From: Escherichia coli
GTDB lineage: Bacteria; Pseudomonadota; Gammaproteobacteria; Enterobacterales; Enterobacteriaceae
Reading direction: 5' to 3' (one strand)
Length of the DNA stretch: 64,000 nt
NCBI RefSeq assembly: GCF_029227855.1
Contig: NZ_CP074356.1
Numbering within the stretch: position 1 is the first letter of the stretch; the number at the start of each line of letters is the position of its first letter. Position numbers and translations under genes: made by a program. Positions 13,019 to 27,983 of the stretch are shown piece by piece. A model generated the notes under the pieces. It was given only the letters and a program-made list of their open reading frames with translations, did no database searches and was not told the DNA's origin.

Positions 13019-13963
13019 ATGAGTCCTGATAATATCAGTTCTGCTGTCAATCGCTTCTCAGGTTGGCCATCTAATGATCCTCTAAAAACAGATAAAGAAT
13101 CAATGACATCACCCATGACTGTGCAGGTAATAAAGATGATTGCCGCCATCCTTGACCCACATCGGATAGTCGTTGGAATCGATACACTTTATACAACGCA
13201 GCGCGAAACATTTACCTCAGAGAGTCAACAGCTCATTGAATCAGCATTGCAAACACTTCATGTGATGAATTTAAATAACCTGGAAACAAATCTCGATGAG
13301 GAAGGTCACTATCTGGCTTTTGGATATAACGTTGACACTCCTGACAGAATAACCGTTTCTGCTTATAATGAAAAAAAGCCTGGCTGCTATGGCCAATGTC
13401 TTTTAATACAGGATGACGAAACAGACTTATTTAACCTGATAAAAGTTAAAATTTTTGAAGCCAGGCATAATTATGTCGCTCAATTGATGAGCGATCCGGA
13501 ATTTATGTTCAAATTTAGTTATAGCGCTCAACAAAATAGATTAGAACCTCATCTTCTGGTTCCCACTTATTTCCCTCTAAAAACAAACGAACCGGTTACG
13601 CAAGAGGATGTACTGTTACTTTATCGTTTCTTTAAAATGGATGGTGATTTTAATATATTAACATCAGATGAATACATGAGTATCATGACACCTCTAATGA
13701 AGTGTGAGCGTAGCATCCACGACCACAACAGGTATGTGACGGGCAAAGATACCCTTCTTCTGGACTATCCTCCTTCTGGTAACCAGATATATTTCCATAT
13801 TTTTCCTGACGAATCAGCAACACTAGTCCTTTATTTTTCAAACAATGACATTGAATGTTTCGTCTTTGAAAGAGATATTCCGAGCCAGTATCGCTTTTTC
13901 AAAATGTTTACCAATCTGGCACTGGTTATTGATCAGTTAACCGATGCCAATCAAATACTTTAA
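13019..13963 (+). CDS. Hypothetical protein, AT-rich, no recognisable family
   Basis: 314 aa ORF, soluble, no motif I can recognise; codon usage and base composition unlike flanking core genes. Confidence 0.6.
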   Translation: MSPDNISSAVNRFSGWPSNDPLKTDKESMTSPMTVQVIKMIAAILDPHRIVVGIDTLYTTQRETFTSESQQLIESALQTLHVMNLNNLETNLDEEGHYLAFGYNVDTPDRITVSAYNEKKPGCYGQCLLIQDDETDLFNLIKVKIFEARHNYVAQLMSDPEFMFKFSYSAQQNRLEPHLLVPTYFPLKTNEPVTQEDVLLLYRFFKMDGDFNILTSDEYMSIMTPLMKCERSIHDHNRYVTGKDTLLLDYPPSGNQIYFHIFPDESATLVLYFSNNDIECFVFERDIPSQYRFFKMFTNLALVIDQLTDANQIL

Positions 13964-14043: not shown

Positions 14044-14466
14044 ATGATCCCATCTCAAATCTCTTTCAACACCCTTCCTGTCAATGCAACATACGCTTCA
14101 GAGACAACAGTTGACACACAAAAATTCTCTGACATCCTCTACTCAGCGGGGTGTTCCCTAAAGGATCTGGCTTATTTGAGCAGATGTCTGGCATCAATAC
14201 ATCCGACTATCGCCAAAAACATTTATGAAACAGAAAATCTCAGCGATCAAAAATTACTACATATTGATTGCCGTAGTACAAATGAAATCAAGATAAATAT
14301 CTTTTTTGGTCGACAACGAGAAGGATTAATTGAAATTAGTTCTGACACAGTCATTTTTTCGATACTGTCTTCATTGATTGACTCCACCATTTCTAAATTT
14401 CAACACCAAAACCCCGTTAACGGTTCTGTAAATCCTGACCTATTGTATGAGGATTATACTGATTAA
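14044..14466 (+). CDS. Hypothetical protein, AT-rich, no recognisable family
   Basis: 140 aa ORF 80 bp downstream of the 314 aa ORF, same strand; likely co-transcribed. Confidence 0.55.
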   Translation: MIPSQISFNTLPVNATYASETTVDTQKFSDILYSAGCSLKDLAYLSRCLASIHPTIAKNIYETENLSDQKLLHIDCRSTNEIKINIFFGRQREGLIEISSDTVIFSILSSLIDSTISKFQHQNPVNGSVNPDLLYEDYTD

Positions 14467-15013
14467 ATCCCTCCTGTCGCGAAAAATGGCCTGCGTTATT
14501 GCCAGACGTAATAAAACTTTTGATTAACGTTTCTCGTACTGGTAGCACCCTCATGTACTTTTCTTTTTTACGAAAAATCAAAAGAGCTAACAAAGGTCAT
14601 AATTCGCATGAATCATTAATTATTTGTTATTTTCAACATTATTTTTACATTAAGCAGAGATGAATTGCAGTGAAATTCGACTTAACTTTTATGAAATGCA
14701 TTTACTCATGGCTAAAGCCACGTCACAAAAATGCAAATTAGAAGTTGATCACAATTATCTCAATACATCAAATCAAGTTAATTTTAAAAATTTAACATTC
14801 ATGACATCAGTTGACATAACACACTGAATTAAAATGAGAATTTGAAAACACACTTTAAACAATCATTTCCCGAAAGACATTTTGAAAATAGATCAATTGC
14901 AACATTACGGTCAGATAAAGACACTCCTGTGATATTAAACCTGTGCCGTTATGAACGGCCATAAATACGACGTGTGTAACTTATTTTACTCTCTGTCTTA
15001 CAAAGGATTACCC

Positions 15014-15463
15014 ATGAAGAAAGCAACACTTGTGATTGGCGTTATTGGCGCGGACTGCCATGCAGTAGGCAATAAAGTTCTGGACCGCGTTTTTAGCAAC
15101 CATGGCTTCAGAGTCATTAATCTGGGCGTAATGGTCAGCCAGGACGAATATATTGATGCTGCCATTGAAACTGGTGCTGACGCGATTGTCGTCTCCTCTA
15201 TCTATGGGCATGGCGATATCGACTGTCTGGACATGCGCGAACGCTGCATCGAGCGTGGACTGGGGGACATCCTGCTCTATGTGGGCGGTAACCTGGTGGT
15301 CGGAAAACATGACTTCGCTGACGTGGAAACCAAATTCAAAGAGATGGGATTTGATCGCGTCTTTGCCCCAAGTCATGACTTAGAAGATGTTTGTCAGCTG
15401 ATGGCCCACGATATCAACCAACGTCATGACGTTGATACTCGTATTCTTGAAGAGGCAATCTGA
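15014..15463 (+). CDS. glmS: Glutamate mutase sigma (S) subunit, B12-binding
   Basis: [21 protein letters not shown]: the DxHxxG cobalamin-binding motif of methylaspartate mutase S; AGGA RBS 7 nt upstream; start chosen at internal ATG of the track ORF. Symbol follows clostridial glutamate mutase usage, not glucosamine-6-P synthase. Confidence 0.85.
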
Positions 15464-16851
15464 TGCAAATCGTCTCTGTCGATATTGGATCGACGTGGAC
15501 CAAAGCAGCCCTCTTCGCCCGGGAGGGGGACGCGTTAACGTTGGTTAACCACGTACTGACCCCAACCACCCCCCATCATCTGGCGAAGGGGTTTTTCTCC
15601 AGTCTGAACCTGGTGTTAAACGTAGATGATGCCCTCCCCCTGTTTAACAGCGGTGAGGTTGCATTGAAGTATTCCTCCTCTGCCAAAGGTGGGCTGGCGG
15701 TTGCCGCAATGGGATTGGTGCCTTCTATCACCCTGGAAACCGCGAAAGTAACCGCTCACTCTGCGGGGGCTAAAATTGCGCAATATTACGCCTACAAGCT
15801 GAACCGCCGTGATATCCAGGCACTGGAAGAAACGCAGCCCGATATTCTCTTGTTCACCGGCGGCACCGACGGCGGAGAAGAAAGCTACGGCCTGAATAAC
15901 GCCCGTGTGCTGGCAGAATCCAAACTCGACTGCGCCATTATTTATGCCGGAAACCGGGATATTCAGGACAAGGTGCAGGAGATCCTAGGGCATAAAGACC
16001 TGACCATCGTCGACAACGTTCTGCCCGATCTTGACCATCCGAACCCTTTAGCTGCACGCCAGGCTATCTGCGACATATTCCTTAAACGCATCGTTAAAGG
16101 GAAAGGGCTGGATGTCGTTGTTGATAAAACAGGCGAAGAACCAATGCCGACACCGTGGACAGTCTTTGAACTGGTTAAGGCAATCAGTAATGTCGATCAC
16201 AGCTGGAAAGAGTTCATGCTGATCGACATGGGCGGCGCAACCACCGATGTCTATTCCGCCTGTGCCAACACGCTCTCGCCCGACACCGTTTTACACGGCG
16301 TACCGGAACCCTTCGTGAAACGGACGGTGGAAGGCGATCTGGGAATGCGCGTCTCGGCAATGGTGGTTGGTGAAAGTGCGAAAGAGTTAGTCAATGTGAA
16401 TTTTGCTCAGCAACCCGCACAGCTGGACGCTTTTTATCATTACCTCCGTCATCTAGTCGCTCATCCCGACTACTTACCCGCGAATTCAGAAGAAAAATAT
16501 TTCGATACCGTCCTGGCCGGACTGTGTGTGGGTTATGCCACCGAAAGACATGCGGGCACCAAAAAAGAGGTCTGCACCTGCGTCGGCAATGTCGATTTAC
16601 AGATGGGACGTGACCTGACAACCGTGCGTAAAGTCGTCGGATCCGGCGGATGGCTCTCGCGTGCCAGTCAGTTCGATATGCATCACTGGTTGAAATACCG
16701 CAAGTTAAACGACGACGGTAAACGCATTCTCTTACCGACCGAATTTGAATATTACCGCGATTCCCGGGGGCTATTACCATTGCTGGCAAACGTCGCCAGA
16801 GTCGATCCGCTGGCCGCCGCGCGCACCAGTATTCAATGCTTAACCCTATAA
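15463..16851 (+). CDS. glmL: Glutamate mutase L component (MutL/GlmL reactivase-like protein)
   Basis: 462 aa ORF between S and E subunits as in clostridial operons; ATGA overlap with the S subunit. Confidence 0.75.
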   Translation: MQIVSVDIGSTWTKAALFAREGDALTLVNHVLTPTTPHHLAKGFFSSLNLVLNVDDALPLFNSGEVALKYSSSAKGGLAVAAMGLVPSITLETAKVTAHSAGAKIAQYYAYKLNRRDIQALEETQPDILLFTGGTDGGEESYGLNNARVLAESKLDCAIIYAGNRDIQDKVQEILGHKDLTIVDNVLPDLDHPNPLAARQAICDIFLKRIVKGKGLDVVVDKTGEEPMPTPWTVFELVKAISNVDHSWKEFMLIDMGGATTDVYSACANTLSPDTVLHGVPEPFVKRTVEGDLGMRVSAMVVGESAKELVNVNFAQQPAQLDAFYHYLRHLVAHPDYLPANSEEKYFDTVLAGLCVGYATERHAGTKKEVCTCVGNVDLQMGRDLTTVRKVVGSGGWLSRASQFDMHHWLKYRKLNDDGKRILLPTEFEYYRDSRGLLPLLANVARVDPLAAARTSIQCLTL

Positions 16852-16869: not shown

Positions 16870-18315
16870 ATGGAACTTCGAAATAAGAAATTAACCCATG
16901 ACGAATTCATGACCGAGCGGCAACAGGTACTGAAAACCTGGGAAACCGGCAAGGATGTTGAAAACTTTGAAGATGGCGTTAAATACCAACAAACCATTCC
17001 TGAGCATAAACGCTTCTCTCTTGCGCTGTTGAAAGCAGACAAGGAAGGTAAAACCCTTAGCCAACCGCGCGCAGGTGTGGCGCTGATGGACGAACACATC
17101 GAACTACTGAAAACACTACAAGAAGAGTGCGATCTGCTGCCGAGCACTATCGATGCATATACCCGTCTGAATCGGTACGAAGAAGCGGCTGTAGGGATTA
17201 AAAAATCCATCGAAGCCGGAACCTCTAAACTGAACGGTTTGCCGGTAGTTAACCATGGCGTCGCAGCTTGCCGTCGCCTCACCGAAACCCTGCAAAAACC
17301 GCTACAGATCCGCCACGGCACGCCAGATGCGCGTCTGCTGGCTGAAATCTCGATGTCCAGCGGCTTTACCAGTTACGAAGGCGGCGGCATTTCCTACAAC
17401 ATTCCGTATGCCAAACGCGTAACGCTGGAAAAATCGATCCGCGACTGGCAGTACTGCGACCGTTTAATGGGGATGTATGAAGAACACGGGATCCGCATCA
17501 ACCGCGAACCGTTTGGCCCACTAACAGGTACGCTGATCCCGCCGTTTATCTCGCACTCTATCGCGATAATCGAAGGCTTGCTGGCGCTGGAACAGGGTGT
17601 GAAATCTATCACCGTTGGTTATGGACAGGTCGGCAGCCTGACGCAGGATGTTGCGGCGATCCAGTCTCTGCGTGAACTTGCACACGAATATTTTCAGAGC
17701 TATGGCTATACCGACTATGAATTAAGTACCGTGTTTCACCAGTGGATGGGCGGCTTTCCGGAAGACGAATCGAAAGCGTTCGCTATTATCTCCTGGGGCG
17801 CAGCCGTCGCGGGGATGTCTGGTGCCACCAAAGTCATCACCAAAAGCCCGCACGAAGCCTGGGGTATCCCGACTGCCGCTGCCAACATTCAGGGGCTGAA
17901 AGCCTCCCGCCAGATGCTCAACATGGTCAACGAGCAGAAATTCCCGCCGTGCCCTGCGGTTGAACTGGAAATTGAACTGATTAAGAGCGAGGTTCGCGCG
18001 GTACTGAATAAAGTGTTCGAACTGGGTAATGGTGATATTGCGCGCGGTACGGTGCTGGCATTTGAAGCGGGCGTACTGGATGTGCCGTTTGCGCCAGCCG
18101 CCTGCAACGCGGGCAAAATTCTTCCGGTCCGTGACAACACCGGCGCGATACGCGTACTGGAAGCCGGAGCCGTTCCATTGCCAAAAGATATTCTCGACCT
18201 CCACCACGATTACGTTGCTGAACGCGCACGCTTTGAAGGACGCCAACCGACATTCCAGATGGTTGTAGATGACATCAATGCTGTATCCCACAGTAAATTA
18301 ATAGGAAGACCATAA
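16870..18315 (+). CDS. glmE: Glutamate mutase epsilon (E) catalytic subunit
   Basis: 481 aa, size and gene order match methylaspartate mutase E. Confidence 0.8.
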   Translation: MELRNKKLTHDEFMTERQQVLKTWETGKDVENFEDGVKYQQTIPEHKRFSLALLKADKEGKTLSQPRAGVALMDEHIELLKTLQEECDLLPSTIDAYTRLNRYEEAAVGIKKSIEAGTSKLNGLPVVNHGVAACRRLTETLQKPLQIRHGTPDARLLAEISMSSGFTSYEGGGISYNIPYAKRVTLEKSIRDWQYCDRLMGMYEEHGIRINREPFGPLTGTLIPPFISHSIAIIEGLLALEQGVKSITVGYGQVGSLTQDVAAIQSLRELAHEYFQSYGYTDYELSTVFHQWMGGFPEDESKAFAIISWGAAVAGMSGATKVITKSPHEAWGIPTAAANIQGLKASRQMLNMVNEQKFPPCPAVELEIELIKSEVRAVLNKVFELGNGDIARGTVLAFEAGVLDVPFAPAACNAGKILPVRDNTGAIRVLEAGAVPLPKDILDLHHDYVAERARFEGRQPTFQMVVDDINAVSHSKLIGRP

Positions 18316-19556
18316 TGAAAATAAAACAGGCCCTTTTTACCGCTGGCTACTCCTCATTCTATTTCGATGACCAGCAGGCGATAAAAAACGGAGCGGGTCA
18401 CGACGGTTTTTTTTATACCGGGGAGCCAGTAACACAGGGGTTTAACGCCGTACGTCAGGCCGGGGAGTGCGTATCGGTACAGTTGATTCTGGAAAACGGC
18501 GCGGTCGCCGTAGGTGACTGTGCTGCCGTACAGTATTCCGGGGCAGGCGGTCGCGATCCACTGTTCCTCGCGGAGCACTTTATTCCGTTCCTCAACGACC
18601 ATATCAAGCCATTACTGGTAGGCCGCGATGTGGATGTTTTCCTGCCGAATGCCCGTTTCTTCGACAAATTGCGTATTGACGGCAACTTGCTGCATACCGC
18701 CGTGCGCTACGGATTATCACAGGCTCTGCTTGATGCTACCGCGCTGGCAACCGGCCGTCTGAAAACTGAAGTGATCTGTGATGAATGGCAGTTGCCACGC
18801 GTGGCGGAATCCATTCCATTATTTGGTCAGAGCGGGGACGATCGATATATCGCCGTCGATAAGATGATCCTTAAGGGCATCGACGTGCTGCCCCATGCGC
18901 TGATTAATAACGTCGAAGAGAAGCTGGGCTTTAAAGGTGAAAAACTGCGCGAATATGTCCGCTGGTTGTCGGATCGCATTCTGAGCAAGCGCACCAGCGC
19001 ACGCTACCACCCAATCCTGCACATCGATGTATACGGCACTATCGGTCTGATCTTCGATATGGATCCGCTTCGCTGTGCGCAATACATCGCCAGCCTGGAA
19101 AAAGAAGCGCAAGGCCTGCCGCTCTACATTGAAGGGCCGGTCGATGCCGGTAACAAGCCCGATCAAATTCGCCTGCTGACCGCGATTACCAAAGAGCTGA
19201 CGCGCCTCGGTTCCGGCGTGAAACTAGTGGCCGATGAATGGTGTAACACCTACCAGGATATTGTTGATTTCACAGATGCCGCCAGTTGCCACATGGTGCA
19301 AATCAAAACCCCGGATCTGGGCAGTATTCACAACATCGTCGATGCAGTTCTTTATTGCAACAGCCACAGCATGGAAGCGTACCAGGGCGGCACCTGCAAT
19401 GAAACTGATGTCAGTGCCCGCACCTGTGTCCACGTCGCCCTTGCCGCTCGCCCCATGCGTATGCTGGTAAAACCAGGGATGGGCTTTGACGAAGGCCTCG
19501 ATATCGTCTTCAACGAAATGAATCGTACTATCGCGCTGTTGCAGGCTAAGGATTAA
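18315..19556 (+). CDS. mal: Methylaspartate ammonia-lyase (beta-methylaspartase)
   Basis: 413 aa; N-terminus MKIKQALFTAGYSSFYFDDQQAIKNGAGHDGF matches the enolase-superfamily methylaspartase N-terminus; start overlaps the glmE stop. Confidence 0.85.
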   Translation: MKIKQALFTAGYSSFYFDDQQAIKNGAGHDGFFYTGEPVTQGFNAVRQAGECVSVQLILENGAVAVGDCAAVQYSGAGGRDPLFLAEHFIPFLNDHIKPLLVGRDVDVFLPNARFFDKLRIDGNLLHTAVRYGLSQALLDATALATGRLKTEVICDEWQLPRVAESIPLFGQSGDDRYIAVDKMILKGIDVLPHALINNVEEKLGFKGEKLREYVRWLSDRILSKRTSARYHPILHIDVYGTIGLIFDMDPLRCAQYIASLEKEAQGLPLYIEGPVDAGNKPDQIRLLTAITKELTRLGSGVKLVADEWCNTYQDIVDFTDAASCHMVQIKTPDLGSIHNIVDAVLYCNSHSMEAYQGGTCNETDVSARTCVHVALAARPMRMLVKPGMGFDEGLDIVFNEMNRTIALLQAKD

Positions 19557-19559
19557 CAA

Positions 19560-20930
19560 ATGGCTCGTTCTTTTAAAGTCTTATCGCCAACGGCAATCCT
19601 CGGGTATGGATTCCCGGAAGAGAGCTTCCGCAAAGCGATGGCAGAATCGCCCGATCTGATCGCCGTTGATGCAGGCTCTTCCGATCCTGGCCCCCACTAC
19701 CTCGGGGCGGGCAAACCGTTTACCGATCGCGCAGGGGTCAAGCGCGATCTGCGCTATATGATCACCGCAGGCGTGCAAAATAATATACCGGTGGTGATCG
19801 GAACGGCCGGCGGTTCTGGTGCCGCTCCACACCTGGAGTGGTGCCGAGAAATAATTCATGAGATTGCCCGGGAAGAGCACCTCTCGTTCTCGATGGCGTT
19901 GATCCCGGCAGACGTTGACAAAGCCATCGTCCACCAGGCGCTGGATAACGGCAAAATCACGGCGCTGGAGTTTGTCCCGCCGTTAACCCACGACGCGATT
20001 GACGAAAGTACGTATATCGTTGCGCAAATGGGCATCGAACCCTTCCAGCGGGCGCTGAAAGAAGGCGCGCAAGTGGTGCCGGGCGGGCGCGCTTACGACC
20101 CGGCCTGCTTTGCTGCGCTTCCGATCATGCAAGGCTTTGATGAAGGTCTGGCGCTTCATTGTGGGAAAATCCTTGAATGCGCGGCAATCGCCGCAACGCC
20201 CGGCTCAGGCTCTGACTGTGCGATGGGCATCATTGATGACAACGGCTTTACGCTGAAGACATTTAATCCGAAGCGTAAATTTACCGAAACGTCAGCAGCT
20301 GCACACACACTGTATGAGAAATCCGATCCCTACTTCCTGCCTGGACCTGGCGGCGTGTTGAACCTGAAAGGCTGCACATTTAAAGCGGTCAATGACAGCG
20401 AAGTGTACGTCAGCGGTTCTAAGCATGAAGAAACGCCGTATTCCCTGAAACTGGAAGGTGCGCGACGGGTGGGCTTCCGCTGTCTGACCATCGCAGGAAC
20501 GCGCGACCCGATCATGATCGCCGGGATCGATAAAATCATCGATGAAGTCAAAACCAGCGTTTCGCGTAACCTGTCGCTCGACGATGACAGCATTCACATC
20601 AATTTCCACCTGTACGGCAAAAACGGGGTGATGGGCGACCATGAACCGATGCAAACTGCCGGGCATGAGCTGGGGATTGTCCTAGATGTAGTTGCGCCGA
20701 CCCAGGAAATTGCCAACAGCGTTTGCTCGCTGGTGCGCTCTACTATGCTGCACTACGGCTATGAAAACCGCATCGCTACCGCAGGCAACCTGGCGTTCCC
20801 GTTCTCCCCTTCTGATATCCAGGGCGGGCCGGTATACGAATTTTCCATATATCACCTGATTGAAGCCAACGACGCTCTGCGTTTTGATTTCCATATTGAA
20901 CAGGTGACGCCAGAAGGAGTTCAGGCATGA
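19560..20930 (+). CDS. Conserved protein of unknown function (possibly DUF1446/AtuA-like)
   Basis: 456 aa, starts 4 nt after mal; family assignment is from memory of N-terminal pattern only. Confidence 0.5.
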   Translation: MARSFKVLSPTAILGYGFPEESFRKAMAESPDLIAVDAGSSDPGPHYLGAGKPFTDRAGVKRDLRYMITAGVQNNIPVVIGTAGGSGAAPHLEWCREIIHEIAREEHLSFSMALIPADVDKAIVHQALDNGKITALEFVPPLTHDAIDESTYIVAQMGIEPFQRALKEGAQVVPGGRAYDPACFAALPIMQGFDEGLALHCGKILECAAIAATPGSGSDCAMGIIDDNGFTLKTFNPKRKFTETSAAAHTLYEKSDPYFLPGPGGVLNLKGCTFKAVNDSEVYVSGSKHEETPYSLKLEGARRVGFRCLTIAGTRDPIMIAGIDKIIDEVKTSVSRNLSLDDDSIHINFHLYGKNGVMGDHEPMQTAGHELGIVLDVVAPTQEIANSVCSLVRSTMLHYGYENRIATAGNLAFPFSPSDIQGGPVYEFSIYHLIEANDALRFDFHIEQVTPEGVQA

Positions 20931-21244
20931 AACAGTCAATTGTCTCACTGGCGCAAGTCATTCGTTCGAAAAATGCCGGACCTTACGAACTGGTTTTAGA
21001 TATTTTATTTAAAACGAAAGAAAACTATGAGCGAGTTAAATCATCAGGGCAATTAACCCCAGAACTGATTGCGCGCTTATATCATGTTGAACCTGACTTT
21101 ATTCACCGTATTGTCTGGTTTGATCCTTCTAACGCAGTAAAAATCGTCATGCCACGAGATATTATCTCCGGGAATGTAGGTGACAATGATGTCTATGGTG
21201 CACAGCAACATGCACCTTTATTAAATATGAGTTTCGATTTGTAA
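20927..21244 (+). CDS. Small conserved protein of unknown function (possibly DUF4387-like partner)
   Basis: 105 aa, ATGA overlap with the preceding gene. Confidence 0.5.
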   Translation: MKQSIVSLAQVIRSKNAGPYELVLDILFKTKENYERVKSSGQLTPELIARLYHVEPDFIHRIVWFDPSNAVKIVMPRDIISGNVGDNDVYGAQQHAPLLNMSFDL

Positions 21245-21327
21245 AAATCCGAATACTTTTAGCCAACTGACATCCCGTCACTTATTGCAGTTCAACACTT
21301 CAGCTATTTGTAAGGTTGTAATAGCAG

Positions 21328-21359
21328 GTAGATGCCTGAATCTCTATTCAGGCATCTAC
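21328..21359 (+). terminator. Perfect 14 bp inverted repeat; candidate terminator or operator between operon and transporter gene
   Basis: GTAGATGCCTGAAT-ctct-ATTCAGGCATCTAC followed by T-rich ttctcctgattctgattt. Confidence 0.55.
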
Positions 21360-21404
21360 TTCTCCTGATTCTGATTTATCGCCGTGCACCTGATGGAGGA
21401 AAAA

Positions 21405-22685
21405 ATGAAGAAAATAAGTTTAACCACGATGATTCTTTTGGCGCTGGTACTTGGAATGATTATCGGCGTAGTGCTCAATAACACTGCTTCACCGGAAACC
21501 GCAAAACTCTATGCGCAAGAAATATCGATATTCACGACGATTTTCTTACGACTGATAAAAATGATTATCGCTCCGTTAGTGGTCTCTACCCTGGTGGTAG
21601 GTATAGCTAAAATGGGCGATGCCAAAGCCCTTGGTCGTATTTTTTCTAAAACACTCTTTTTATTTATTTGCGCCTCATTGCTGTCAATTGCCTTAGGCTT
21701 GATAACAGTAAATTTCTTCATGCCAGGCACAGGAATTAATTTTGTTGCACACGGAGCCGAAACCACCGGAGTGGTCGCGTCAGAACCCTTTACGCTAAAA
21801 GTATTTATTTCGCATGCTTTCCCCACCAGCATTGTCGATGCCATGGCGCACAATGAAATTTTGCAAATCGTGGTGTTCTCAATTTTCCTCGGCTGTAGCC
21901 TGACGGCGATTGGCGAGAAAGGCAGCGCCATCGTTCACGCCTTAGATTCGCTGGCACATGCCATGTTAAAGCTCACTGGCTACGTCATGCTCTTCGCTCC
22001 CCTGACCGTATTCGCTGCTATTTCAGCATTGATTGCTGAACGAGGACTGGCAGTTATGGTGAGCGCCGGGATCTTTATGGGTGAATTTTATTTCACCATG
22101 TTATTACTTTGGGTGCTGCTTATCGGTCTGGCCATCGTTTATGTTGGCCCCTGCATCAGACGCCTGACCCGCGCCCTTTCGGAACCCGCCCTGCTGGCAT
22201 TTACCACATCCAGTTCTGAAGCGGCTTTTCCGGGAACGCTTGAAAAACTGGAGCAATTTGGCGTTTCCCCAAAAATTGCCAGTTTTGTCTTACCCATTGG
22301 CTACTCATTTAATCTCGTTGGATCAATGGCCTACTGCTCCTTCGCCACAGTTTTCATCGCCCAGGCCTGCAATATCCATTTATCCATCGGTGAGCAAATC
22401 ACCATGCTGTTGATCCTGATGTTGACCTCGAAAGGAATGGCTGGCGTACCACGCGCCTCAATGGTGGTTATCGCCGCCACGCTCAACCAGTTCAATATTC
22501 CGGAAGCGGGGCTGATCTTGCTGATGGGCGTTGATCCGTTCCTTGATATGGGGCGTTCAGCGACAAACGTCATGAGCAACGCAATGGGCGCTGCGATGGT
22601 GAGTCGGTGGGAAGGCGAACATTTCGGCGAGGGCTGTCGGGGTAAAGCATTAAAACCCAATGAATCGAACGTTGCTCTGCCCTGA
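21405..22685 (+). CDS. Dicarboxylate/amino acid:cation symporter (GltP/DctA family), probable glutamate uptake
   Basis: About 426 aa polytopic protein; GGAGGA RBS 5 nt upstream of ATG 21405 (track ORF starts at an upstream GTG). Confidence 0.8.
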   Translation: MKKISLTTMILLALVLGMIIGVVLNNTASPETAKLYAQEISIFTTIFLRLIKMIIAPLVVSTLVVGIAKMGDAKALGRIFSKTLFLFICASLLSIALGLITVNFFMPGTGINFVAHGAETTGVVASEPFTLKVFISHAFPTSIVDAMAHNEILQIVVFSIFLGCSLTAIGEKGSAIVHALDSLAHAMLKLTGYVMLFAPLTVFAAISALIAERGLAVMVSAGIFMGEFYFTMLLLWVLLIGLAIVYVGPCIRRLTRALSEPALLAFTTSSSEAAFPGTLEKLEQFGVSPKIASFVLPIGYSFNLVGSMAYCSFATVFIAQACNIHLSIGEQITMLLILMLTSKGMAGVPRASMVVIAATLNQFNIPEAGLILLMGVDPFLDMGRSATNVMSNAMGAAMVSRWEGEHFGEGCRGKALKPNESNVALP

Positions 22686-22792: not shown

Positions 22793-24445
22793 ATGTCCAA
22801 ACCATTTATCTGGCAAGAACCGTTTCTACAAAATAAAGACGGTACAGAATATACATTAATTAGCGATCAACATATTACAGTAACGGAATTAGACGGCGAA
22901 GAAGTAATAAAAATCGCTCCTGAAGCATTAACGCTGCTTGCCCGGCAGGCATTTTATGAAGCCTCTTTTTTCTTACGTTCCGCTCATTTGCAACAGGTCG
23001 CCAGCATTCTTAACGATCCGCAGGCCAGTAGTAATGATAAATACGTTGCGTTGCAGTTATTACGTAATGCTGAAGTCTCAGCAAAAGGGGTATTACCCAA
23101 CTGTCAGGATACCGGCACCGCAACTATTGTTGCCAGTAAAGGGCAACAGATATGGACGGGAGGTAACGACGCTGAAGCCTTAAGCAAAGGCATTTACACC
23201 ACTTTTCAGGAAAATAATCTGCGCTTTTCACAAAATGCGCCACTGGATATGTTTACCGAAGTCAATACGCAAACCAATCTCCCGGCGCAGATTGATATCA
23301 GCGCCGTCGCTGGTGATGAGTACCATTTTCTCTGTATTAATAAAGGGGGCGGCTCTGCCAATAAAGCCGCGCTTTATCAGGAAACCAAATCCCTATTGCA
23401 ACCAGAAAAACTGACCGCATTTTTAATCGAAAAAATGAAATCGCTGGGCACCGCTGCCTGCCCGCCTTACCACATCGCCTTTGTCGTCGGAGGACTTTCA
23501 GCCGATCAAACCTTAAAAGTTGCCAAGCTGGCCTCAACGAAATATTACGACAATTTGCCCACCAGCGGAAACGAGCAAGGACAAGCATTCCGTGATATTG
23601 AGCTGGAAAAAGTATTGCTCGAGGCCAGTCAGCAATTTGGTATTGGTGCGCAATTTGGGGGTAAATATTTCGCTCATGATATTCGCGTCATTCGTCTGCC
23701 GCGTCACGGTGGCTCTTGCCCGATAGCTATGGCGCTCTCCTGTTCTGCGGATCGCAATATCAAAGCAAAAATTAACAAGCACGGTATCTGGCTGGAAAAA
23801 CTCGAACACAATCCGGGGCAATATATTCCAGCCTCACTGCGGGAAGAAAATCACGCGCAACATGTACAGCTGGATCTAAACCGTCCGTTGCGTGACGTGA
23901 TGCAGGATCTCGCCAGATTACCGGTAGGCACCCGCGTGTCGTTAAGTGGTCCCATCGTAGTGGCGCGCGATATCGCCCACGCCAAAATAAAAGCGCGGCT
24001 GGATAGCGGCGAACCGATGCCGGATTACCTGAAGCATCATATTGTCTATTACGCTGGCCCGGCGAAAACACCGGAGAACATGGCCTGCGGTTCACTGGGT
24101 CCAACCACGGGCGGTCGAATGGACGGTTATGTCGATACCTTCCAGGCGGTTGGCGGCAGTCTGGTGATGTTATCGAAAGGTCACCGCAGCCAGCAGGTCA
24201 CCGATGCCTGTCACAAACATGGCGGCTTCAATCTGGGAAGTATTGGCGGTGCAGCTGCGTTACTGGCGCAAGAATATGTCAAAAGTCTGCGTTGCCTGGA
24301 ATACCCGGAGCTGGGTATGGAAGCGGTGTGGATGATGGAAGTGGAAAATCTGCCCGCATTCATCCTGGTAGATGATAAAGGCAATAATTTCTTTAGTCAG
24401 TTTGAGCAGCAACACCGCTGCGCCAGTTGCCCTGCGGGACATTAA
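22793..24445 (+). CDS. fumD: Class I (Fe-S) fumarate hydratase family enzyme, probable mesaconase
   Basis: 550 aa; N-terminus closely parallels FumA ([31 protein letters not shown]); linkage to glutamate mutase/methylaspartase as described for the E. coli O157:H7 mesaconase FumD. Confidence 0.8.
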
Positions 24446-25060: not shown

Positions 25061-25093
25061 CTGCGCCTGGCATCCCGCCAGGCGCAGGTTTTA
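25061..25093. terminator. Bidirectional terminator hairpin between convergent cobA-like and LysR genes
   Basis: CTGCGCCTGGC-atccc-GCCAGGCGCAG then gtttta. Confidence 0.6.
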
Positions 25094-25996
25094 CATCTCC
25101 TGCGGTACAACCGATTTCGCCAGCAACCATTCACGAAATTGCTGCAAGTGCGGTGAGTCAGACTTCTCTTCCTGCCACGTCATAATAAAACGATTACCGG
25201 TACGAATAGGCACATCACAGGGGATCACCATATCGCCACTATCCAAATCATGTTGAATAGCGAAACGTGGTAACAGCGCCACGCCGAGATTAGAGCGCAC
25301 GGCGGCAATCAGCATTGAAAGCAAATCGAAACGTGGTCCGTTGTTGACCAGTGGACTGCTAACGCCAGATAAAGCAAACCACTCTTCCCAGCCAGTAATA
25401 CGGGTGCTTTGATGCAGAAGTGGTAACTCAGTAAGCAGTTCTGCCACTGACAGTTTTTGATCGGACATTGCAAGCAAACTGCCGCTGCATACCGGCAAAA
25501 TCTCCTCATCAAAGAGATATTCTACTTCCGCCCAGGGCGCGCAAAAATTTTCGCGCATAATGACAGCATCGTACTCCCGATTAAGAAAATCGCCGTTATT
25601 AGCTAAAGAGTGAATATTAACAATAATATCGGGATGTAACTTTGTGAATTCATGTAAATTTGGGATTAACCAGTGGGTACTAAACGTAGGATTCACGGCA
25701 AGTTCAATAACCTGAACCGTAGGCTGCCAGGTCATAATAGTATTGGTATCGCGTTCCAGCTTATTTAATGTTTCTTTTACTATCCCCAGGTAATACTTCC
25801 CTGCATCATTAAGAAAAATACGTTTTTTAGAGTGTGAAAATAACGGAGTATGTAAAAATTCCTCCAGCGCACTCACTTGTCTGAATACAGCACTTTGGGT
25901 TAACGCTAACTCCTCTGCCGCTCTGGTATAACTTTCATAACGTGCGACGACCTCAAAAGTCACCAGCAGCTCCGTTTTAGGTATTTTTCCTCGCAT
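25091..25996 (-). CDS. LysR-family transcriptional regulator
   Basis: N-terminal HTH (TRAAEELALTQSAVFRQVSALE) and LysR substrate-binding domain; start at ATG 25996 with RBS; divergent from the RtcB-like gene. Confidence 0.85.
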   Translation of the reverse strand: MRGKIPKTELLVTFEVVARYESYTRAAEELALTQSAVFRQVSALEEFLHTPLFSHSKKRIFLNDAGKYYLGIVKETLNKLERDTNTIMTWQPTVQVIELAVNPTFSTHWLIPNLHEFTKLHPDIIVNIHSLANNGDFLNREYDAVIMRENFCAPWAEVEYLFDEEILPVCSGSLLAMSDQKLSVAELLTELPLLHQSTRITGWEEWFALSGVSSPLVNNGPRFDLLSMLIAAVRSNLGVALLPRFAIQHDLDSGDMVIPCDVPIRTGNRFIMTWQEEKSDSPHLQQFREWLLAKSVVPQEM

Positions 25997-26585: not shown

Positions 26586-27983
26586 ATGCATCATCTTTCA
26601 AGGCTTGATAAAGCCTTTCTGCGCAAAGGGATCCAACTTTCCCGCGCCAACAATATTGTTTCATTATCTCGTCCATCAGGTGCCAGTGCCCGCGTACTGC
26701 TGCCGGACGAACTGCCGCTGGAAGAAAAAGCAGTAACACAACTGCTTGATTTTGCAGAAGTGAAGCTACCAGACCACCCAGGTTATGTGCGCCAGACGTG
26801 CGCGACGCCAGATTTTCATCCCGGCAATGGCGTCCCCGTTGGCGCGGTGGTGGCCTCAACGCCGGATTTAGTCATTCCCGCCGCCATCGGCACCGATATT
26901 TCTTGTGGCATGCGGCTGCTGACGACCGGATTAACACTTGAGCAAGCCGAAGCGCATAAAGACATCATCGCTCAGCGGTTAACGCAAGTGCTGCTGCAAA
27001 ATGAGCGCGATGTTCCGTTATCCGCACAGGCGTTCACTGCGCTTTTTGATGGCGGACCGGCAGATTGCGTGTCGACCTTGCCATCAGCAGGTCTCTGGAC
27101 ACGCACGAATATCCCCCGAATGGTACAAGAGATTGACTGCTGCATTGGGCTTAACGAGCATAACAGTCATTCGCGTTATGCCCCACCCGCCCTGCTGGCA
27201 ACGGACCGCGCATTACTCCGCGATCCTTGTCTGGGTACGCCGGGTTCAGGTAATCATTTTATTGAACTTCAGGTCGTTGATAGCGTGGTTGATCGCCATG
27301 TAGCCTGGCAACAAGGGCTGAAAACAGGCGATATTGTGGTGATGATCCACAGTGGATCGCGAGATGTTGGCTTTTACGTCGGAAGACGCTGGATGGATCG
27401 CGCCCGTGCTGAATGGCCCACCGGACATAAACATCCACAAAGCGGGTTATATGGTCTGGCAGGCGGACTGGCGGAGGAATATCTACAAGCGATAGGAATG
27501 GCTGCGCGTTACGCGTGGTTAAATCGCGTCACAATTGCCGAAATGGTGCGCGTATGTCTCGCCAATCTCTTTCATCAGGACAATTCGCATCTGGTGGTGG
27601 ATGTGCCGCATAACATCATCCTTCGCGAGCATGAAATGAATATTCATCGCAAAGGTGCAACACCGGCACGAGTGGGCGATCTGGCATTAATCCCCGGTTC
27701 AATGGGCGATTATTCGTGGCTTGCAGTCGGTTGCGGCAACCCGGAGTGGCTGTGGTCATGCAGTCACGGAGCAGGACGCAGCCAGCGTCGACAGGCCATG
27801 CGCTCAAGCGCGACTGAAGAGTCAACGCTGCCGTGGCAATGCGTCACATTGCGTGAAGAACGACGTCTTGAAGAAGCGCCAGCGGCTTATAAAGATATTG
27901 GTCCGGTTATCGAAGCCCAACAAGAAGCCGGATTAATTCAACCAGCGGTCAGATTTCGACCGTGGTTAACGTTTAAGGGGTAA
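26586..27983 (+). CDS. RtcB-family RNA ligase paralog (stand-alone)
   Basis: 465 aa with RtcB signature blocks DISCGMRL, GSGNHFIE, MIHSGSRDVG, HRKGATPARVGDLALIPGSMG, CSHGAGR, APAAYKDIGPV; all metal/GMP-binding Cys/His positions appear conserved. Confidence 0.8.
   Translation: MHHLSRLDKAFLRKGIQLSRANNIVSLSRPSGASARVLLPDELPLEEKAVTQLLDFAEVKLPDHPGYVRQTCATPDFHPGNGVPVGAVVASTPDLVIPAAIGTDISCGMRLLTTGLTLEQAEAHKDIIAQRLTQVLLQNERDVPLSAQAFTALFDGGPADCVSTLPSAGLWTRTNIPRMVQEIDCCIGLNEHNSHSRYAPPALLATDRALLRDPCLGTPGSGNHFIELQVVDSVVDRHVAWQQGLKTGDIVVMIHSGSRDVGFYVGRRWMDRARAEWPTGHKHPQSGLYGLAGGLAEEYLQAIGMAARYAWLNRVTIAEMVRVCLANLFHQDNSHLVVDVPHNIILREHEMNIHRKGATPARVGDLALIPGSMGDYSWLAVGCGNPEWLWSCSHGAGRSQRRQAMRSSATEESTLPWQCVTLREERRLEEAPAAYKDIGPVIEAQQEAGLIQPAVRFRPWLTFKG

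Follow-up and report, generated by a model that had tools for sequence, protein, structure and literature searches.

Two adjacent genes in the methylaspartate operon of Escherichia coli, cmlA and cmlB, very probably encode (we put the probability at roughly 0.87) a two-subunit citramalate lyase that acts independently of CoA and ACP and closes the methylaspartate pathway. We base this reading on the identity of both proteins to solved structures in the PDB, on the in vivo use of an orthologous pair, on synteny, and on the finding that no CitE or CitF lies nearby. The function as such is already known: the enzyme to which cmlAB is orthologous has a name, a solved structure, and a record of use. 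The window, by which we mean the whole 64,000-nucleotide stretch of contig NZ_CP074356.1 analyzed here, carries the pair within a larger accessory island.

Structure of the cmlAB gene pair

The two genes and their translation signals are listed here; both Shine-Dalgarno sites were read from the sequence.

19560..20930, + strand: cmlA, probable citramalate lyase large subunit, AtuA/DUF1446 family, 456 aa, ATG start
20927..21244, + strand: cmlB, probable citramalate lyase small subunit, DUF4387, 105 aa, ATG start
19548..19552, + strand: Shine-Dalgarno AAGGA for cmlA, within the last mal codons, 7 nt 5' of the ATG
20913..20919, + strand: Shine-Dalgarno GAAGGAG for cmlB, within the 3' end of cmlA, 7 nt 5' of the ATG

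The stop codon of the preceding gene, mal (TAA, 19554-19556), is separated from the cmlA ATG at 19560 by a gap of 3 nt (caa), one fewer than the 4 nt given in the first-pass annotation of this DNA. That annotation was right about the two open reading frames of 456 and 105 aa after methylaspartase and about their ATGA overlap, in which the cmlB ATG (20927-20929) runs into the cmlA TGA (20928-20930). Translational coupling of cmlA and cmlB would favor equimolar assembly of the two products into one complex. Both are real genes, not chance open reading frames, because they match the Pfam families AtuA and DUF4387 and align over their full length with solved proteins.

CmlA and CmlB are orthologous to a solved citramalate lyase

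The 456-aa protein matches Pfam AtuA (PF07287, formerly DUF1446) over residues 63-393 with an E-value of 6.4e-18, and the 105-aa protein matches DUF4387 (PF14330) over residues 6-101 with an E-value of 2.9e-39; the earlier suggestion that this might be a DUF1446/DUF4387-type pair thus agrees with the HMM search. NCBIfam holds no model that matches either CmlA or CmlB.

Each protein also has a full-length match in the PDB. CmlA is identical to chain A of entries 9ERQ and 9EVF at 416 of 456 positions (91%, full length, E 4e-289), and CmlB is identical to chain B at 88 of 104 positions (85%, full length, E 5e-57). The depositors name the chains 'Citramalate lyase, subunit A (cmlA)' and 'subunit B (cmlB)'; the two entries, released in October 2025, comprise one complex with AMPPNP and citramalate and one with ADP and pyruvate. 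The sequence of chain A is that of a Klebsiella michiganensis protein (locus L009) whose genes run glmSLE-mal-cmlAB-gltP-fumD-cobO, the same order as in the window. The solved enzyme and its Raoultella planticola counterpart have the same architecture as the window's pair, a 456-aa AtuA-family subunit with a 105-aa DUF4387 subunit; the window's CmlA differs from the solved CmlA by 40 substitutions, including the private L174P discussed below.

An orthologous pair has been put to use in living cells. In a preprint of January 2026 (bioRxiv 10.64898/2026.01.16.699985), 'Cml (cmlAB)' from R. planticola, a gift of the Berg laboratory, serves to convert citramalate to pyruvate and acetate in vivo. 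The substrate there is (S)-citramalate made by FumA; growth of an acetyl-CoA auxotroph on mesaconate depends on the plasmid, and label passes into leucine. A decade earlier, in work on the same island, the Berg laboratory had characterized FumD as a mesaconase and found no citramalate lyase activity in extracts with citrate lyase, isocitrate lyase, or methylisocitrate lyase (PMC4682846, 2015). The authors wrote that the fate of citramalate 'is still unclear' and pointed out the DUF1446 gene downstream of mal. Given this gap and the identity to the solved and in vivo orthologues, cmlAB is in all likelihood the enzyme that was missing in 2015. Citramalate cleavage had been among the candidate functions offered for the pair at the outset, and the solved proteins, with their names and their citramalate and pyruvate ligands, agree with it, as does the in vivo use of cmlAB.

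We found no primary paper on CmlAB or on 9ERQ/9EVF in a literature search; the relevant literature was limited to the 2015 FumD paper, the 2026 preprint that uses CmlAB, and a Thauera paper on AtuA. Neither the already determined function nor the binding of ATP and ADP had been foreseen by the first-pass annotation. Sequence identity to an enzyme with a name and a structure is established, as are the ligands that the entry titles give, the activity of the orthologue in vivo, and the synteny; activity of this particular E. coli allele is predicted.

The methylaspartate island

The 1685-nt cmlAB segment occurs at ≥95% identity in 1125 of 5426 complete E. coli genomes, about a fifth, where RefSeq labels the pair 'AtuA family protein' and 'DUF4387 domain-containing protein'. 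It lies within an accessory island of ~16 kb between cydA and mngB that comprises, in order, two hypothetical genes, glmS, glmL, glmE, mal, cmlAB, a gltP-like gene, fumD, cobO, a divergent LysR gene, and an RtcB-family gene. The gene names are those of the RefSeq annotation of the closest genome, which differs by only 2 nt over the locus. The features that surround the pair are as follows.

15014..15463, + strand: glmS, methylaspartate (glutamate) mutase B12-binding subunit S (RefSeq; the mechanical open reading frame starts at 14951)
15463..16851, + strand: glmL (MutL), mutase accessory/reactivating protein (annotation; a PF13941 homologue holds the same position in distant loci)
16870..18315, + strand: glmE, mutase catalytic subunit E (annotation)
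18315..19556, + strand: mal, 3-methylaspartate ammonia-lyase (annotation)
21326..21361, + strand: 16-bp perfect hairpin between cmlB and the transporter gene, MFE -28.8 kcal/mol, z -4.1
21405..22685, + strand: gltP-like dicarboxylate/amino acid:cation symporter (annotation)
22793..24445, + strand: fumD, class I fumarase/mesaconase, producer of (S)-citramalate, the probable CmlAB substrate (annotation; FumD orthologue characterized in PMC4682846)
24455..25057, + strand: cobO, cob(I)yrinic acid a,c-diamide adenosyltransferase, B12 activation (annotation)
25061..25087, + strand: strong intrinsic terminator at the operon end, 11-bp stem with 9 GC pairs and a T-rich tail
25091..25996, - strand: LysR-family regulator, divergent (annotation)

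Read together, these genes would make up a complete route. Glutamate would be converted to 3-methylaspartate by GlmSE, aided by GlmL and CobO; Mal would yield mesaconate, and FumD would turn it into (S)-citramalate, which CmlAB would cleave to pyruvate and an acetate unit. In this way CmlAB would close the methylaspartate pathway in enterobacteria, which are without a CitDEF-type citramalate lyase.

The hairpin downstream of cmlB may be a weak terminator or attenuator or an mRNA-stability element; the terminator scan did not call it because it lacks a proper T-run. The divergent LysR gene is a candidate regulator of the island. In Rfam searches we found no RNA element or riboswitch in the island; the matches were tRNAs, RtT, and the cpoB thermometer, each of which lies far upstream of it. 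A promoter scan did not rise above the shuffled expectation.

Conservation of gene order at cmlAB loci

We collected 80 loci with CmlA homologues of 56-91% identity from a one-genome-per-species collection and mapped their features by tblastn with the window's proteins. These loci span Enterobacterales, Rhodocyclales, Riflebacteria, Aminicenantes, Spirochaetes, Lentisphaerae, Planctomycetes, Desulfobacterales, Shewanella, and several Firmicutes. At every testable locus (76/76) cmlB lies directly downstream of cmlA, and mal immediately precedes cmlA in 66 of 72. The co-occurrence with mutase genes that the first-pass annotation had proposed to check is borne out, with glmE upstream of cmlA in 62 of the 68 testable loci and glmL in 53 of 62. 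Four metagenomic loci with precomputed Pfam labels have the same gene order. Together with the 3-nt gap, the ATGA, and the Shine-Dalgarno sites, the recurring order mal-cmlA-cmlB supports the early claim that the pair is co-expressed with the pathway.

That CmlA and CmlB form one complex is supported by relatives of ~610 aa, in which the DUF4387 module is fused to the C-terminus of the AtuA domain and the motif RSKNAGP[YF]E is kept. In most non-enterobacterial lineages, Aromatoleum and Propionivibrio among them, a conserved gene for a P-loop NTPase of ~313 aa directly follows cmlB; searches of Pfam, NCBIfam, and PDB profiles with this protein returned only Walker-A-level matches.

Comparison with other lyases and alternative assignments

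The classical citramalate lyase (EC 4.1.3.22) of Clostridium tetanomorphum catalyzes the same net reaction, (S)-citramalate to pyruvate and acetate, at the same place in the methylaspartate pathway (PMC4682846). It is a CitDEF-like complex with an ACP prosthetic group, accompanied by CitCXG. In contrast, CmlAB is unrelated to it by sequence and comes without genes for an ACP subunit or a CoA-derived prosthetic group; the solved CmlAB binds ATP/ADP instead. Searches by tblastn with E. coli CitF and CitE (E 1e-4) gave no match in the window or in 88 loci. We therefore ruled out a classical CitD/CitE/CitF complex as the identity of the pair: neither protein matches CitE or CitF, and Pfam shows only AtuA and DUF4387. 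With CitE/CitF absent from cmlAB loci and citDEF-type genes present in classical clostridial clusters, it looks as if this step is served by either CmlAB or the classical lyase. The statement in the first-pass annotation that clostridial operons lack such a pair stands for the C. tetanomorphum/C. tetani type, which has citDEF-like genes (PMC4682846), but not for some genomes of the class Clostridia (Terrisporobacter, Oscillospiraceae), which carry cmlAB after mal.

AtuA, the protein for which the Pfam family is named, shares this family with CmlA and also contains the DUF4387 module, although in fused form. Its proposed chemistry, in which a tertiary carbinol with a free -CH2-COO- arm loses an acetate unit (PMC4847356), is of the same kind as that of CmlAB. 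AtuA proteins differ in that they are single chains of ~600 aa encoded in atu clusters, with a CoA ester as the proposed substrate; family representatives as distant as AtuA are roughly 30-40% identical to CmlA. AtuA in the strict sense, a fused chain in an atuABCDEFGH cluster with geranyl-CoA carboxylase genes, was rejected as the identity of CmlA, as the island holds no atu genes and the modules are separate.

The pair might nevertheless act on another substrate or at another step, either as an AtuA-type 3-hydroxy-3-alkylglutaryl-CoA:acetate lyase or as another 2-hydroxy-dicarboxylate lyase, with citramalate a ligand only in the crystal. The Pfam placement of CmlA in the AtuA family speaks for this, as does the breadth of that family (about 2,370 clusters at 50% identity, in varied contexts), and five CmlAB loci have no mal nearby; the neighbors of mal-less loci in Shewanella, Accumulibacter, and Desulfospira gave no clue to function. 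We consider such a role very improbable, however, because in addition to the lack of atu genes in the island, mal and glm accompany the clade at ≥56% identity in 92% of the loci where this could be tested, the depositors, who named the enzyme a citramalate lyase, obtained both substrate and product complexes, and the orthologue is active in vivo on (S)-citramalate made by FumA.

Several CmlA homologues are named '3-methylaspartate ammonia-lyase' in NCBI records (P0002, P0060, and P0073), a label that Kronen and Berg flagged as unexplained (PMC4682846). We rejected this name for CmlA, which has no MAAL_N or MAAL_C match in Pfam; the true Mal is encoded by the preceding gene. These labels, and the location of cmlAB in a B12-dependent operon, would be the grounds for taking the pair as a second methylaspartase or as a factor for accessory or cofactor handling, such as mutase protection or B12 delivery. 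Both forms of this idea are effectively refuted: the enzyme was crystallized with citramalate and pyruvate rather than with cobalamin or methylaspartate, and cofactor handling, which had also been floated for the pair at first, is unsupported, as the operon already has GlmL and CobO for this task.

An Fe-S lyase was also considered. Four Cys residues are invariant among CmlA orthologues, but in a set of 109 family representatives conservation is lost at C95, C220, and C272, and only C207 is widely kept (86%); we rejected this candidate.

A possible role for ATP

According to the entry titles, the solved orthologue binds an ATP analogue with citramalate and ADP with pyruvate. Because the ATP analogue pairs with the substrate and ADP with the product, phosphorylation of the C4 carboxylate of citramalate by ATP is suggested. 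The resulting acyl phosphate would enable C2-C3 retro-aldol cleavage, playing the part of the thioester in citrate lyase, and the products would be pyruvate and acetyl phosphate (or acetate after hydrolysis), with acetate kinase able, in principle, to recover ATP.

ATP-citrate lyase offers a comparison. This enzyme is ATP-dependent and activates a carboxylate as citryl phosphate before C-C cleavage; it requires CoA, releases acetyl-CoA and Pi, and has an ATP-grasp/succinyl-CoA synthetase-like fold plus a citryl-CoA lyase. Like CmlAB, it cleaves a citrate-type 2-hydroxy acid, but the comparison extends to mechanism only, as the folds are unrelated and the acyl-phosphate step in CmlAB is itself putative.

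The N-terminal domain of CmlA has a weakly amino-acid-kinase-like fold and a weak resemblance to carboxylate kinases, the comparators being aspartokinase, N-acetylglutamate kinase, glutamate 5-kinase, and carbamate kinase. Fifteen residues are invariant across the 109 family representatives (30-60% identity), and all are present in the window's CmlA: G15, D42, G44, G87, G158, G176, R177, D180, G192, E253, P263, G265, E299, G305, and G353. H200, K203, E206, and C207 are conserved at 85-95% in the same set. In the AF2 model, prediction is poor only in the invariant Gly-rich loops 42-53 and 213-217. A chemistry common to the whole AtuA family is suggested as well.

On the strength of the ligand pairs and the weak kinase-like fold of the N-domain, we tentatively propose an acyl-phosphate mechanism for CmlAB, at slightly less than even odds. 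Against it, ATP is nowhere named in the preprint (10.64898/2026.01.16.699985), where the reaction is handled as one that is sensitive to acetate. The nucleotide could instead be only an allosteric or structural ligand, with free citramalate cleaved directly by metal or acid/base assistance, as in isocitrate lyase, and no phosphoryl transfer. Spending ATP would indeed be disfavored in an energy-poor fermentation, and this option is a serious one that we nonetheless regard as somewhat doubtful. An ATP analogue found with substrate and ADP found with product form the pattern of a nucleotide that turns over, and the N-domain resembles, if weakly, carboxylate kinases. It is also established enzymology that the alpha-carbanion of acetate with a free carboxylate is a poor leaving group, and known citrate and citramalate lyases use a thioester instead.

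If the acyl-phosphate mechanism and the family-wide chemistry were both correct, CmlAB would found a new mechanistic class of C-C lyases, in which ATP phosphorylates a free carboxylate and an acetyl-phosphate unit, not a thioester, leaves in the retro-aldol step. This chemistry would also account for the AtuA/DUF1446-DUF4387 superfamily as a whole, and with it for the release of acetate in acyclic terpene degradation, a step that has long gone unassigned; the P-loop NTPase encoded after cmlB might be a third, nucleotide-handling component. We hold this combined proposal to be speculative and would sooner expect it to fail than to succeed. The depositors of 9ERQ/9EVF may already have settled the ATP chemistry.

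A private substitution in CmlA

Over 25,685 nt, the window differs from the closest genome, that of E. coli JNEC-KY178, at only 2 nt, both inside cmlA. The difference at 20447 is synonymous, and that at 20080 changes Leu174 to Pro.

20079..20081, + strand: cmlA codon 174, CCG (Pro), Leu in relatives; private, possibly damaging variant

Among 1093 E. coli records, none matches the 61-nt segment around codon 174 exactly. Of 33 aligned sequences, 31 have Leu at position 174 and one has Ile, with Pro solely in the window's own, and the residue is L, I, V, F, or C in all 109 family representatives. The residue lies in a predicted strand (172-175), two residues before invariant G176, that leads into the invariant motif G176-R177-x-Y179-D180.

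Because Pro174 is private and falls in the strand before an invariant motif, this strain may have an impaired enzyme; alternatively, the base may have been called wrongly in sequencing. The first of these would leave cmlAB orthologous to the solved pair and concerns this allele only, so it is compatible with the CmlAB identity. A proline that enters the beta-strand before an invariant motif, and that is found in none of the E. coli records or family representatives, argues for impairment. On the other side, only one residue is substituted and the reading frame is neither shifted nor interrupted, the base could be misread, and the AF2 model folds with pLDDT >90 in that block, although AF2 is insensitive to point mutations. 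On balance, we think functional impairment of the allele unlikely.

Discussion

The last step of the methylaspartate pathway in Enterobacteriaceae had no enzyme, and CmlAB very probably fills this gap. The assignment has value for annotation, where RefSeq names are generic, NCBIfam offers no model, and the large subunit goes under the name of methylaspartase in some records. As a CoA-independent citramalate lyase, CmlAB is already used in synthetic pathways. Its ATP/ADP ligands are a hint that the chemistry may be out of the ordinary, which, if confirmed, would matter beyond this pathway. For the family, CmlAB gives a first function to two widespread domains, DUF1446/AtuA and DUF4387.

Variation within cmlA and a hairpin downstream of cmlB

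Over 25,685 aligned bases, the window differs from its closest genome, E. coli JNEC-KY178, only at positions 20080 and 20447; both differences, one missense and one synonymous, fall within the 1.37-kb cmlA gene. The change at 20080 lies in codon 174 (20079-20081) and produces L174P, which is private to the window (0 of 1093 E. coli records carrying the region). Position 174 holds a hydrophobic residue in 109 of 109 family representatives and sits two residues upstream of the invariant G176-R177. L174P may be a loss-of-function allele, or else a sequencing error.

A perfect 16-bp hairpin (21326-21361; -28.8 kcal/mol, z -4.1), lacking a proper T-run, sits within the 140 nt that separate cmlB from the gltP-like gene. 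This hairpin may act as an attenuator or mRNA-stability element, dividing the operon into two expression units.

Further genes lie at the two edges of the island.

Genes at the island edges
13019-13963 and 14044-14466: two unannotated hypothetical genes, encoding 314 aa and 140 aa respectively, at one edge
26586-27983: orphan RtcB-family gene, without rtcA or rtcR, at the opposite edge

Elsewhere in the window, the segment 2015-4137 (- strand) holds ordinary E. coli content, namely a seven-gene tRNA cluster with RtT repeats and the cpoB/ybgF RNA thermometer.

Database names of CmlA and CmlB

Several CmlA homologues (protein records P0002, P0060 and P0073) are named '3-methylaspartate ammonia-lyase' by NCBI; this label is wrong, as was already pointed out in 2015 (PMC4682846). 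RefSeq E. coli records still use 'AtuA family protein' for cmlA and 'DUF4387' for cmlB, and NCBIfam has no model for either protein, showing that annotation trails PDB naming.

cmlAB loci in other lineages

Some cmlA-cmlB pairs, with identities of 57-67%, have neither mal nor glm genes in the roughly 10 kb around them. In the Shewanella loci, cmlAB adjoins a gene for a protein of ~1370 aa. The mutase genes may lie elsewhere in these genomes, or these cmlAB copies may act on citramalate of a different origin. A class I fumarase (mesaconase) is missing from the 10 kb around many glm-mal-cmlAB clusters, and the locus therefore does not reveal the mesaconate hydratase of these organisms.

Genome loci lacking pathway genes nearby
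Without mal or glm: L037 (Accumulibacter); L067, L083 and L084 (Shewanella); L074 (Desulfospira); L073
glm-mal-cmlAB without nearby class I fumarase: L002, L007, L031-L036, L048, L056 and others

Directly 3' of cmlB, most non-enterobacterial clusters conserve a gene whose product, ~313 aa long, contains a Walker A motif (GxEGxGKST). It is found at 37 of the 71 genome loci, none of them from Enterobacterales.

Examples of the Walker A gene, by locus
L002: 11698-12654
L004: 11677-12618
L006: 11712-12665
L007: 11698-12621

Searches of Pfam, NCBIfam and the PDB for relatives of the encoded protein returned none beyond the P-loop itself. This P-loop protein may be a third component, tied to nucleotide use by CmlAB.
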